Positions 467-13,845 of a DNA stretch of 28,665 nt are shown piece after piece. Source of the stretch: a virus (lineage: Duplodnaviria; Heunggongvirae; Uroviricota; Caudoviricetes); the IMG/VR virus record IMGVR_UViG_2740892282_000008. One strand, given 5' to 3'. Both the position numbers and the translations under genes were made by a program. Every line of letters starts with the position of its first letter. Position 1 is the stretch's first letter. Below the pieces are notes generated by a model. That model did not search any database. It was not told the DNA's origin and saw nothing but the letters and a program-made list of their open reading frames with translations.

Positions 467-1051
467 CTATTCGATAATGGGTACTGTTGGCCATTCAATA
501 TCCGGTGCAGTTGTTGTATTAACACGGTTCAGCAACACCCGATACTTCTTCCAGGCTTCCAGCAACGAGGTTTCTTCCTCCGTTGCAATTTCCAGATCTG
601 CAGCATCCTGAAGCGGCGCAATATGCTCACTGGCTACCTGCATCAGGCTGTTTTTTGTTTCTTCCGCCTCCCGGATCCGGAACAGTTTTTCTGCTTCTGC
701 ATCTTTCACCCAGGCTGTGCCGTTCCACTTCTGATATTCCCCTCCCGGCGACAACCAGGTAACATTTTCCGGTAACGGACCGAGTTCAGAAATAAATAAC
801 GCGTCGCCGGAAGCCACGTCATAAACCGTTTTACACCGATGGTCTTCAACGAGATGCCACGATGCCTCATCACTGTTGAAAACAGCCACAAAGCCAGCAG
901 GAATATCTGGTGGTGCAATATCGGTACTGTTTGCTGGCAGACCTGTATGAGGCGGAATATATGCGTCACCTTCACCAATAAATTCATTAGTTCCGACCAG
1001 CAGATTATAAATTTTTATGGTCCGTGGTTGTTCACTCATTCTGAATGCCAT
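467..1051 (-). CDS. tfa: Tail fibre assembly protein (Tfa family)
   Basis: 194-aa ORF with ATG start; N-terminus [18 protein letters not shown] and overall sequence match my recollection of E. coli prophage TfaR/TfaE proteins; stop overlaps the upstream ORF by 1 nt. Confidence 0.85.
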
Positions 1052-1362
1052 TATGCAAGCCTCACAATATAGTTAAATGCGATGTTTTTGACGGTGTTTT
1101 CCGCATTATCAGCAGCGTTAACGGTGATGGTGTGTCCATGTGAACCAATCGCAACGGAGTGCGTATGAGCACCAATAGCTGCTTTTAATTTTGCGAGCGC
1201 GTTCTTCTCATCTTCTGTTGCCTTAGTCACTTTCCCTGCGCTATTTGCAGCAGTTTCCCCAGCCTGCGTCATTTTGACTAATGAGGAGGTCAGATTGTCA
1301 GCATTATTTTTCGCTCCAGTGCTATCAATAATTATTGCGAGACGCGAGGTTTGCTCTGCCAT
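1051..1362 (-). CDS. Side tail fibre C-terminal domain protein (103 aa), probable remnant of a longer stf gene
   Basis: C-terminal His-rich motif [18 protein letters not shown]...[11 protein letters not shown] typical of lambdoid side tail fibre C-termini; has its own ATG and an AGGAG RBS, but no virion-attachment N-terminal domain; a terminator lies immediately upstream. Confidence 0.6.
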
Positions 1363-1385
1363 TTATTAAAACTCCTGACAACAAA

Positions 1386-2792: not shown

Positions 2793-3044
2793 TTAGTCCT
2801 GATTTTTATCCACCCTGAGTAGTTCGCGCAGAGCAAAGGCATCCCCTTTTCTGGCAAGCTTAAACAATGCCGCTCGTAACTCGGCTTCACCTTTCGCTCT
2901 GCCCTTACGGATGGCCGCATAAAAATCTGTCATTGCTTCCCGATTTTCTTTCAGTCGGTTCAGATCAACATCCAGAACGTCAGCGATTTGTTGTGCAGTC
3001 ATCCGGCACGCTGCCAGAGACTCGACTTTCGAATACGGAATCAT
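2793..3044 (-). CDS. Hypothetical small HTH-like protein (83 aa)
   Basis: ATG with strong RBS (GGGGGTGA); overlaps the 3' end of the upstream gene in another frame. Confidence 0.5.
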   Translation of the reverse strand: MIPYSKVESLAACRMTAQQIADVLDVDLNRLKENREAMTDFYAAIRKGRAKGEAELRAALFKLARKGDAFALRELLRVDKNQD

Positions 3045-3933
3045 TTGTCACCCCCATTGATATGCAGGGTGTCTTCTTCCTGTATTTTTCGTGAAGGATT
3101 TTTACTGCAGCGTTGTTCCAGGTGACCTGATGGTGAATGCGTTTATGGCTGGCACCCATCAGTGAGATTTTTACGCACGACGGCGCATACATGACGGAGT
3201 AAAAACTTTTAACGTAGGTTCCGGAATCCAGATACAGCTCGGTCATTCCGCCGCTGTTTTTCTGCGTCTGTTTCTGCCCTAACTGGACAGCACCGATCGT
3301 CATAAACAATTCACCACAGCGACCGAGATTCGTGTACGTATTCACATCCTCGTTAATGCGCCCCATGAATGAGAACGGTCGATCAACCGAACAGATAAAG
3401 CTGTTCATTGCCTTGCGTTTCACCCACGAAGCATGGCCGCCATTGTCACCAAGAAAATCCCCGCCCTGCGACATAGCGATGGAAAGAGCAGGTATTGATT
3501 CGTAGTACGCCAGCATTTCAGAAAGGATCGCATCCAGTTTCCTTATCGGAAAATAGGCCTGGTCATAGTTGCGATCCACCCGAAACTGGAACTCGTGATA
3601 ATCATCATCGAGCTGAATGAAGTATTTACACCCGACCAGTTTTGCCAGGTCGAAACAGGCATTACGGGCGTAAAAAATTGAGCGGCGGTCACAGAAATTA
3701 TCGGCTTCGTCAAAACGACTGGCGATATCGGCTTTGGAAAACACCAGCACCTGTTCACCAAATTCAGCCATGTACTGATTCCGTGTCTTATCTTCATCAT
3801 CAACAACGATAAAAATTTTCCCGGTATAGCCAGCACGACGCAACGTCCGGTAAGTCAGAACTTTGTCCGGTCGCCCGTGAGTCAGAATAAAGGCGCAAAA
3901 ATCATCACGCATATTCCTCCTCCTCACCACCAT
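2980..3933 (-). CDS. Uncharacterised protein, partner of the ParB-like gene (310-317 aa)
   Basis: Long ORF translationally coupled to the upstream ParB-like gene. The likely true start is the ATG at 3912, preceded by AGGAGGAGG. Contains a possible PD...(D/E)xK-like motif (GRPD ... IFIVVDDEDK); no methyltransferase DPPY/NPPY motif and no PP-loop. Confidence 0.7.
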   Translation of the reverse strand: MVVRRRNMRDDFCAFILTHGRPDKVLTYRTLRRAGYTGKIFIVVDDEDKTRNQYMAEFGEQVLVFSKADIASRFDEADNFCDRRSIFYARNACFDLAKLVGCKYFIQLDDDYHEFQFRVDRNYDQAYFPIRKLDAILSEMLAYYESIPALSIAMSQGGDFLGDNGGHASWVKRKAMNSFICSVDRPFSFMGRINEDVNTYTNLGRCGELFMTIGAVQLGQKQTQKNSGGMTELYLDSGTYVKSFYSVMYAPSCVKISLMGASHKRIHHQVTWNNAAVKILHEKYRKKTPCISMGVTNDSVFESRVSGSVPDDCTTNR

Positions 3934-11769: not shown

Positions 11770-11925
11770 TTACTCCTCAGGTTCGTAAGCTGTGAAGACA
11801 GCGACCTCCGTCTGACCGGTTCGGATTCGCACCTCGCAGAGGTCTTTCCTCGTTACCAGTGCCGTCACTATGACGGTTAAACAGATGACAATCAGTGCGA
11901 CTAACATCGCCTTTTGCTGCTTCAT
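11770..11925 (-). CDS. hok: Hok-family type I toxin (51 aa); in-frame mok-like extension to 11982
   Basis: MKQQKAMLVALIVICLTVIVTALVTRKDLCEVRIRTGQTEVAVFTAYEPEE is near-identical to my recollection of HokD; AAGGAG RBS; upstream in-frame ATG at 11982 gives a 70-aa mok-like ORF; 9-bp hairpin ggcgaggga/tccctcgcc just 3' of the stop. Confidence 0.85.
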   Translation of the reverse strand: MKQQKAMLVALIVICLTVIVTALVTRKDLCEVRIRTGQTEVAVFTAYEPEE

Positions 11926-12136
11926 AGCCTGCTTCTCCTTGCCTTCCGGCGCGTAAGAGGCTAACCTACATGTGCAAAGCATGAAATTGGCCTCAGATTA
12001 ATGTTAAGCGTCTTGCCGGACGCGTAATGTTATCTGGGGCTTTTCTCTATCTGCCTTTGGTGTTCATGCCTGAGGCAGATAGCCTCAAGCACCCGCAGCA
12101 ATTCTACTTAACTCCCGTCACCTCGCCAATATAAAA

Positions 12137-12226
12137 TCAATCAGAAAGGCGATCCATAAGAACAACAGCAAGACAATAAATTGCCATTACAGCCGCAATA
12201 GCTAGCGCACATTTGAGAACCAGCAC
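12137..12226 (-). CDS. Candidate small membrane peptide (29 aa, GTG start)
   Basis: GTG preceded by AGGAGG at 5 nt; encodes VLVLKCALAIAAVMAIYCLAVVLMDRLSD, a single hydrophobic helix. It overlaps the 74-aa six-frame ORF at 12141-12365 in a different frame. Confidence 0.25.
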   Translation of the reverse strand: MLVLKCALAIAAVMAIYCLAVVLMDRLSD

Positions 12227-12405
12227 GACAACCTCCTGTATTGGACGTACACCAGTTCTGATAAATATGAGGCTGTCTCATCATTGATTCAATATAACTA
12301 TTGGGTATAGTTTCTGTGATTTTGTTCTGTAGAAATGGAACACAACAACCAGTCACCACCAGCACTTCTTTAAATACGCCAAGTCCGACGCAAGCTAACC
12401 TTCTA

Positions 12406-12429
12406 GTCCGCTTTGAGCGAGGAGCGGAC
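12406..12429. repeat. Dyad element copy C: GTCCGCT-N10-AGCGGAC
   Basis: Perfect 7-bp inverted arms with 10-bp spacer, ~220 bp upstream of the MFS operon. Confidence 0.6.
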
Positions 12430-12645
12430 CAAACCCGGCCAACTGACTCTTAAAGGGGCCGCAGGAATTTTTCGTCTGAACTTTCGAAGCTCCTCTCCCT
12501 GAAGACAGAAAACTTCTGTGTGCTGTGGGAATATTGAATCTTTGCCTTAGATATAAATAATTTTATCCCGCCTGAAGTTTACATTATTTTATTTATCTGT
12601 TTTTCTAAATCAGACTGCACTCCTTACTTAAATCAGGAGCCAGTC

Positions 12646-13845
12646 ATGCCATTTGTTATTTATGTGTTTACTATCAGTGCCTTTGCGCTCGGACTCGCGG
12701 AATTTGTCCCCATTGGGCTGACAGACGTTATGGCTCAGGGGTTGTGTGTGGGTGTGGAGCAGACCGGGGCAGCGGTTACAACCTATGCACTGGGGGCAAC
12801 GTTCGCGGCACCCGTACTGTCTGCGCTGACAGCAAGCTGGAGCCGGAAAAATGTAATGCTTACAACTGCCGTTGTGTTTACTGCCGGTAGTCTGGCGGCC
12901 GCGTTTGCAGCCACATTACCTCAGCTCCTGTTAGCGCGGTTCATTGCTGGTCTGGGACACGGCCTGTTTCTGGCTGCGGCATCCAGTACCGCAGCTCGTC
13001 TTGCTGGACCGGGTAAAGCAGGCAGAGCGGTGGCTGTGGTATTTGGTGGCTTTACTCTGGCGATGGCAATCGGCGTACCGCTGAGTACATGGTTGGGGGG
13101 GGGGGTCTCATGGCGTCCAGTTCTCGGCGCTATTGCCGCTTTTGGCGCGTTCGGATTCCTTGGACTGTTGTTCGGTATGAAAGATCCCGTACGCAGCGTG
13201 CCCGGTGAACATAGTGACTCAGCAATGCAGAATATCGGCATGCTGTTTAACCGTAAGTTGCTGGCCGGCGCGCTGGTTACGGTGCTGGCGTATGCAGGCT
13301 CGTTTACGGATTACACCTTTATCGCACCTATTCTGACGCAGGTGACAGGGGTTACCGGAGCAACGGTGAGTCTGTTTATGCTGGTTTACGGTATTACAGC
13401 TGCGGTAGGTAATATTCTTGGTGGGAAACTTACCGACAGCATGGGGGTTAATCGTGCCAATATACTCATCATTAGCGGCATTGTTGTTGTCGTGCTTGGT
13501 ATGTGGCTGCTGTCATCCTCACCGGTGAGCATGGGCATTCTGGTTGCGCTGCTGGGTATGGTGACATTTGCCGCAGTGCCGGCACTGCAGGCCCGTCTGA
13601 TTGGTGTCGCTGAGCAACATGCTCCTCATGCGCATGGTGTTGCTGCCGGCCTGAATATTGCGGGCTTCAACTCAGGTATAGCGCTGGGATCAGTACTGGG
13701 CAGCATTACTATAAGCCACGCCGGTATCGTGTATACCGGTATCAGCGGTGCGATTGTTTCTCTGCTCGGCCTGCTGTTGCTGCTTGCACAAATCCGTCGC
13801 AGCCACAGTCGTAAATTTCAACAGGTTAAAATCGTAGGCCAGTAA
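12646..13845 (+). CDS. MFS transporter (399 aa)
   Basis: About 12 predicted transmembrane helices, Gly/Ala-rich major-facilitator-like sequence; AGGAG RBS; GC-rich relative to phage DNA; contains an 11-G tract. Confidence 0.85.
   Translation: MPFVIYVFTISAFALGLAEFVPIGLTDVMAQGLCVGVEQTGAAVTTYALGATFAAPVLSALTASWSRKNVMLTTAVVFTAGSLAAAFAATLPQLLLARFIAGLGHGLFLAAASSTAARLAGPGKAGRAVAVVFGGFTLAMAIGVPLSTWLGGGVSWRPVLGAIAAFGAFGFLGLLFGMKDPVRSVPGEHSDSAMQNIGMLFNRKLLAGALVTVLAYAGSFTDYTFIAPILTQVTGVTGATVSLFMLVYGITAAVGNILGGKLTDSMGVNRANILIISGIVVVVLGMWLLSSSPVSMGILVALLGMVTFAAVPALQARLIGVAEQHAPHAHGVAAGLNIAGFNSGIALGSVLGSITISHAGIVYTGISGAIVSLLGLLLLLAQIRRSHSRKFQQVKIVGQ

Follow-up and report, generated by a model that had tools for sequence, protein, structure and literature searches.

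On the reverse strand of the window, by which the whole analysed stretch of viral DNA of 28,665 nt (28.7 kb) is meant, an open reading frame (ORF) of 29 codons lies between a hok/mok/sok locus and an MFS transporter gene that belongs to a cargo island (Table 1). The frame is opened by the GTG at 12226 and closed by the TGA at 12137-12139, and its 29 codons read VLVLKCALAIAAVMAIYCLAVVLMDRLSD when the GTG is taken as M at position 1. The ORF with its strand and start codon, the near-consensus Shine-Dalgarno sequence 5 nt upstream, and the placement between hok on one side and cargo on the other were all found exactly as the original prediction, made from the letters of the sequence, had described them. 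The neighbouring hok locus is a hokD/hokW-like hok/mok/sok locus. Its -35 hexamer begins 8 nt past the stop codon of the small gene, and 43 nt separate the end of the small gene from the 5' end of the hok mRNA. On the far side, the cargo island begins with the MFS transporter gene, which is encoded on the opposite strand. For an identical E. coli chromosome, RefSeq gives the order DUF2254, LysR, gamma-glutamylcyclotransferase, MFS, hokD, DUF1367, DUF1364, and DUF1133, with nothing annotated between the MFS gene and hokD. In a Shigella flexneri locus (L194, 1118..2316), the MFS transporter of the window is broken into ORFs of 177 and 251 aa and looks like a frameshift pseudogene, next to an intact small gene.

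Table 1. Positions of the small gene, its predicted expression signals, and other features discussed in the text. Positions refer to the window unless another locus is named.
Feature	Position	Strand	Remarks
Small gene	12137..12226	-	GTG start, 29 codons, TGA stop; product MLVLKCALAIAAVMAIYCLAVVLMDRLSD, predicted single transmembrane helix
Shine-Dalgarno AGGAGG	12232..12237	-	5 nt 5' of the GTG of the small gene
Predicted -35 hexamer TTGAAT	12287..12292	-	sigma-70 promoter of the small gene
Predicted -10 hexamer CATATT	12264..12269	-	small gene; 17 nt past the -35
Predicted 5' leader, 31 nt	12227..12257	-	small gene; start near 12257 suggested by the position of the -10
Conserved leader motif GTGTACGTCCA	12242..12252	-	inside the predicted leader of the small gene
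Cys-rich 74-aa ORF	12141..12365	-	overlaps the small gene; rejected as a gene
hok CDS	11770..11925		neighbour of the small gene
hok/sok Rfam match RF01794	11920..12094		116 bits; places the 5' end of the hok mRNA at 12094
hok promoter TTGGCG-17-TAGAAT	12101..12129	-	neighbour, separate from the small gene
Stretch shared with hok loci lacking the small gene	12137..12161		begins about 25 nt before the stop codon
Promoter-like TTGATT-16-TATAGT	12284..12311	+	back-to-back with the -35 of the small gene
Block of about 145 nt	12296..12440 (both strands)		upstream of the promoter of the small gene
MFS transporter gene	12646..13845	+	cargo
Another short hydrophobic ORF	1295..1369	+	TTG start, 24 aa, AGGAGG 5 nt upstream
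queH-hokD intergenic region of strain B (equivalent in L214)	about 3040-3135		GTG of MLVLKCTLAIVAVMAIYCLVIVLMDHLSD

The encoded peptide has a GRAVY of 1.81, with a value of 2.57 over residues 2-24, and AlphaFold2 modelled it from a shallow alignment as one continuous helix spanning residues 2-29 (pLDDT 93.7). The model and the composition are consistent with the single hydrophobic helix that had been proposed for the ORF. A lysine stands near the N-terminus (Lys5) and the C-terminus is formed by an acidic tail (MDRLSD). By the positive-inside rule, Lys5 and the net acidic tail suggest that the peptide is probably oriented N-in/C-out. No Pfam, NCBIfam, PHROG, or PADLOC family matched the peptide, and when 1.84 billion representative proteins were searched exhaustively with HMMER, nine near-identical Escherichia peptides came back and nothing else. 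A homology to the transmembrane segment of Hok, drawn by eye (CLTVIV against CLAVVL and RKDLCE against DRLSD), was unsupported by any profile search and was discarded.

By itself, the combination of a Shine-Dalgarno sequence and an ORF is only moderate evidence for the small gene. On both strands of the window, 19 start codons are preceded at 4-9 nt by AGGAG or GGAGG and followed by an ORF of at least 20 codons, and five of these 19 ORFs are shorter than 35 codons. What lifts the small ORF beyond chance is the support from the comparison with related loci. The window also holds another short hydrophobic ORF with a Shine-Dalgarno sequence (1295..1369), which lies antisense inside a 103-aa gene (1051..1362, - strand) and is probably fortuitous.

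Viral contigs were scanned for related loci with the hok promoter as anchor, a second viral scan used the alternative downstream sequence, and for metagenomes the anchor consisted of the leader plus the first four codons; the loci from these scans were pooled with E. coli records that were fetched individually. The same start, stop, and length were found in 201 of the 213 pooled cassette matches (40 nucleotide haplotypes), and about five genuine homologues were disrupted by a 2-nt deletion, a lost stop codon, and rearrangements or junctions. Substitutions were inferred on a minimum-spanning tree of 39 haplotypes, which yielded 75 changes, distributed over codon positions 1, 2, and 3 as 20, 14, and 41, respectively (chi-square p = 3e-4). 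Read in the 29-codon frame, 40 changes were synonymous and 35 non-synonymous, compared with about 23 synonymous changes expected at a synonymous fraction of 0.30 (binomial p = 2.7e-5). The forward frame +1 gave 22 synonymous and 52 non-synonymous changes and no excess, and the forward frame +2, which is that of the overlapping 74-aa ORF, gave 15 and 60, respectively (p = 0.97). The synonymous excess in the 29-codon frame persisted in subsets defined by how the loci had been found (p = 1.4e-4 and 1.4e-5), and pairwise dN/dS among six lineages was 0.09-0.63 in 13 of 15 pairs.

The single most telling pair was the window and E. coli 746 (L215), with 12 differences, eight of them synonymous and the remaining four conservative. 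Amino-acid replacements were also conservative across the loci, being exchanges among A/T/V, V/I/L, M/V/T, D/E/N, and R/H. The nucleotide identity of the ORF between lineages was 81-97%. With a divergence this modest, the statistics are built on the 75 inferred changes, and the tree on which they were counted could be distorted by recombination. The lack of nonsense mutations was dropped as coding evidence since only 0.66 were expected, which makes their absence uninformative. The synonymous excess, the fixed start, stop, and length, and the conserved expression signals described below support the proposal that the ORF is a real protein-coding gene with a reading frame under selection, and it is from these features that we infer translation. 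The Cys-rich 74-aa ORF, the only ORF reported here by the six-frame track and judged less plausible in the original prediction, was rejected as a gene: its frame carried no coding signal, its start was not fixed, its length ranged from 23 to 107 aa among the loci, and it had no Pfam match.

The expression signals of the small gene were compared over four upstream sequence types, termed a (the window), b (E. coli B and phage HannyBb), c, and d. The -35 hexamer TTGAAT or TTGAAG (TTGAAK) was unchanged in six divergent lineages, and the -10 hexamer CATATT was invariant in six representative lineages and retained by almost every one of the 35 distinct upstream sequences. The spacing of the two hexamers was exactly 17 nt, and the identity of the spacer between upstream types was 35-71%. 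Constant hexamers around a diverged spacer are the pattern expected for a functional sigma-70 promoter, which is predicted here for the small gene. A consensus scan missed this promoter because it matches the consensus at 8 of 12 positions and the scan needs nine. The -35 was replaced in a few variants (L084/L098, L094, and L216), and a few copies were without the -35 or the whole promoter; in such copies the gene would depend on read-through from upstream phage genes. In L084 and L098 (6 copies), the sequence that replaces the -35 completes a perfect palindrome, TCTCATCA-A-TGATGAGA, which spans the spacer of the promoter.

With one exception, the distinct upstream sequences kept the Shine-Dalgarno sequence as AGGAGG, AGGGGG, AGGAGA, or GGGAGG, and a GGAG-type site together with the GTG persisted in all four upstream types. 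Conservation of the ORF and of its ribosome-binding site in related prophages had been named in the original prediction as a way to check it, and both are conserved. The leader motif GTRTACGTCMA was also kept in types a-d, in a surrounding leader that is 51-89% identical. RNAalifold paired this motif with codons 5-7 in an 8-bp helix that encloses the Shine-Dalgarno sequence and the start codon, with essentially no covariation and with mismatches that break the helix in types b and d. Compared with shuffled sequences, the fold of the small-gene mRNA was not significant (z = -1.08) and the antisense strand folded no better (z = +0.08). No LexA box or other operator fitted the leader in a check by eye. 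No intrinsic terminator was found between the stop codon of the small gene and the hok promoter, the sole terminator-like match being weak and inside the ORF, and no Rfam match was obtained in 12137..12440, the only model found at a permissive threshold being the adjoining hok/sok.

The 160-nt cassette, counted from the -35 to the stop codon, occurred in 1959 of 5426 complete E. coli genomes (36%), with one to three copies in each. A scan of one genome per species gave 88 matches, mostly chance, among which the true copies were solely those of Escherichia ruysiae and Shigella flexneri; E. albertii was added as a carrier by the protein databases. The range found by the genome scan and the protein searches is thus Escherichia/Shigella only. 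Four sequenced phages carry the cassette, namely Tritos, Evi, mEp460_ev081, and HannyBb. The cassette of strain B is of type b and lies in a Qin-like prophage between queH and hokD.

The suggestion that the small protein might be unannotated held in part. Among the matches listed, no RefSeq genome row annotates a gene under the cassette, but variants of the peptide are present in GenBank as ‘hypothetical protein’ or ‘membrane protein’, including those of REL606 (ACT39199.1) and BL21(DE3) (ACT43394.1), and one variant is a RefSeq MULTISPECIES entry from 650 contigs. The sequence string of the peptide had no match in a literature search, and as far as the searched literature shows, the peptide has been sporadically annotated as hypothetical and neither named nor studied. 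In the deposited annotation of phage HannyBb (L002, 2454..2743), two ‘hypothetical proteins’ are placed opposite the small gene and its leader, and these are probably miscalls given the substitution pattern of the small ORF.

The surroundings of the cassette vary on both sides. Its upstream neighbour is queH, the end of a DUF977 gene, or one of four different kinds of reverse-strand cargo, among them the MFS island. Downstream, the ORF is followed by hok in 166 copies and by a reverse-strand DUF1971 gene in 34 copies, and in the DUF1971 context the different sequence begins directly after the stop codon of the small gene. Upstream types and downstream contexts occur in various combinations around the unchanged ORF, and 41 of 119 hok-promoter loci are without the small gene. 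The changing flanks and these 41 loci indicate that the small gene is neither a part of hok nor dependent on it. In the 41 loci, of which L008 is the type, homology to the window begins about 25 nt before the stop codon of the small gene, so that the last eight codons overlap a stretch that travels with hok. This stretch is either a recombination joint or an upstream element of the hok promoter.

Upstream of the promoter of the small gene lies a block of about 145 nt that is conserved between the window and the phages Tritos, Evi, and mEp460_ev081 (L003, L004, and L005). Beyond it, each of the four has cargo of its own (the MFS island, an acetyltransferase, or one of two different proteins of about 445 aa), and the cargo gene always lies on the opposite strand and reads away. 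A promoter-like sequence on the forward strand stands back-to-back with the -35 of the small gene in a near-palindrome, ATTGAATCAAT, and the block ends in a hairpin (GTCCGCT...AGCGGAC). The arrangement may be a shared divergent promoter and leader for reverse-strand morons. Loci of type c (L047, L018, L020, L027, and L217) have, about 165-245 nt upstream of the small gene, a second small ORF that is conserved and hydrophobic and encodes 27 aa, M[TS]WPEAFTTVGIA[ILM]AVALVVY[SL]IC[HR]W[MG]. It is absent from the window and has a GGAGG-type ribosome-binding site, and its start codon is fused with the stop codon of the variable gene in front of it (ATGA).

We consider it likely that the ORF is a real small gene of the prophage ‘moron’ kind, which encodes a single-pass inner-membrane peptide and has its own weak promoter, and most of this confidence attaches to its being a real coding gene for a membrane peptide. 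The gene would be carried by lambdoid prophages of Escherichia as an independent cassette some 160 nt long. In this cassette, a weak sigma-70 promoter (TTGAAT, 17 nt, CATATT) would drive transcription of a leader of roughly 31 nt, and translation of the 29 codons would begin at the GTG behind a strong Shine-Dalgarno sequence. With a promoter of its own, the gene could be expressed from the resting prophage like a ‘moron’, and during lytic growth it would also be expressed through read-through of the early-right operon. The product would insert into the inner membrane, probably N-in/C-out, and would most likely act within the membrane through helix-helix contacts, either by modulating a bound host membrane protein or by self-association. 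The transcription start, translation, membrane insertion, and topology are predictions from the sequence.

A different explanation for a hydrophobic peptide in this position is a second type I toxin-antitoxin module with the peptide as its toxin: a membrane-depolarising peptide would be restrained by an antisense or divergent small RNA, or else by folding of the mRNA over its ribosome-binding site, either of them as yet unrecognised. We regard this as unlikely, even though size and shape match: as in TisB, ZorO, DinQ, ShoB, Ibs, and Hok/Gef (19-51 aa), a single hydrophobic helix, here with a polar tail, is encoded in intergenic or prophage cargo DNA and has a narrow host range. TisB and ZorO are 29 aa long, DinQ 27 aa, and ShoB 26 aa. 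The small gene moreover adjoins a confirmed type I locus (hok/sok) in a prophage cargo region and has a weak predicted promoter and a GTG start, and the predicted helix between leader and codons 5-7 would enclose its translation start. Just past the stop codon, an opposite-strand -10-like hexamer (TAAAAT, TGAAAT, or TGTAAT) is present in both downstream contexts, but in the DUF1971 context it is without a usable -35. No antitoxin RNA or Rfam match was found in the region, the antisense strand is unstructured, and complementarity with the upstream region or the Sok region is within chance. Unlike in type I systems, the leader of the small gene is short, the fold of its mRNA is not significant, and the helix lacks covariation and is broken in two of the upstream types. 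The peptide also shows no similarity to Hok/Gef or to another family model (Ldr, TisB, Ibs, ShoB, ZorO, and DinQ).

Candidates for an antitoxin partner were rejected as well. For a trans-acting or divergent RNA in the upstream block, or cross-pairing with Sok, the duplex energies of the window were no better than those of shuffles; the energies of L214 and L018 beat shuffles, but not at a conserved site. Pairing through an 8-nt repeat, GTGCTGGT, was within chance by estimate. The lack of a sequence signal for an antitoxin RNA is not proof of its absence, and since no partner was found, the small gene is not filed as a type I system.

It is very improbable that the ORF is fortuitous and the conserved stretch a non-coding element, be it upstream regulatory DNA of the hok promoter or the template of a small RNA that starts at the TTGAAT/CATATT promoter. 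The ORF does abut the hok -35, its last 25 nt or so are conserved without the rest in the 41 hok loci mentioned above, and its identity between lineages exceeds that of leader and spacer, which a constraint on RNA or DNA could equally yield. Three-base periodicity and synonymous excess, however, are confined to the frame of the small gene, the Shine-Dalgarno sequence, start, stop, and length are conserved, and the cassette remains intact without hok beside the DUF1971 gene. RNA structure was rejected as the cause of the conservation, as neither strand folds significantly, the RNAalifold helix is without covariation, and no Rfam family is matched.

Hardly credible is a regulatory leader peptide whose translation would control the downstream hok or nin genes: the ORF is short, has a strong Shine-Dalgarno sequence, and ends shortly before the hok promoter and mRNA start with no terminator before the next gene, but 34 copies face an opposite-strand gene and thus have nothing downstream to regulate, no attenuator-type alternative hairpins were found, and conservative replacements extend along the whole helix, whereas in leader peptides only the regulatory codons matter. 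Both this and the non-coding explanation are disfavoured because the substitutions are specific to one frame and because copies face a gene on the other strand.

The favoured explanation, a real gene for a prophage-borne membrane peptide, can be set beside two groups of known small proteins. KdpF, PmrR, MgtS, MgtR, AcrZ, and MgrB, small inner-membrane regulators of E. coli and Salmonella, are shorter than 50 aa, have one transmembrane helix, bind larger membrane proteins, and are missed by routine annotation. The peptide resembles them in its length, its one predicted helix, and its being missed by routine annotation, and its Ala-rich faces (A7, A9, A11, A12, A15, and A20) could support helix packing. 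It differs from them in being prophage-borne and not part of a core operon, in having no consistently adjacent partner gene, and in showing no homology.

The other group is that of prophage morons and small lysogenic-conversion proteins, such as DicB of Qin (PMC6832061) and hokW-sokW of Sp5 (PMC8621323). Like these, the small gene lies in that variable part of lambdoid prophages which is flanked by the replication genes and nin/Q, has promoter-like signals, namely invariant hexamers around diverged 17-nt spacers with an 8/12 match to the consensus, and behaves as a module whose flanks are shuffled and vary between phages. Unlike these, it has no terminator of its own and no known phage-exclusion or phage-release phenotype. 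With no intrinsic terminator behind its ORF, the small gene departs from the textbook picture of a self-contained moron.

The small gene is a new, uncharacterised example of the small single-pass membrane proteins that are carried by prophages. Proteins of this kind are routinely missed by annotation, and the present one concerns 36% of complete E. coli genomes, including strain B derivatives that are used for protein production and in long-term evolution experiments. The gene lends itself to testing, as the cassette is present in BL21 and REL606 and Ribo-RET initiation-site profiling exists for BL21 delta-tolC, the genome of which has a type b cassette. That the peptide is a prophage effector with a clear phenotype, either the first of a new membrane-toxin family that needs no antisense RNA or a peptide for superinfection exclusion or the blocking of a host transporter, is possible although rather doubtful; in that case, resident prophages would be producing it in about one third of E. 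coli strains, BL21(DE3) and REL606 among them. If the peptide is neither toxic nor protective, it would be one more conserved small protein to which a role is not assigned. If it is toxic or protects against phages, it would add a new family to the prophage-borne membrane effectors, beside hok/sok.
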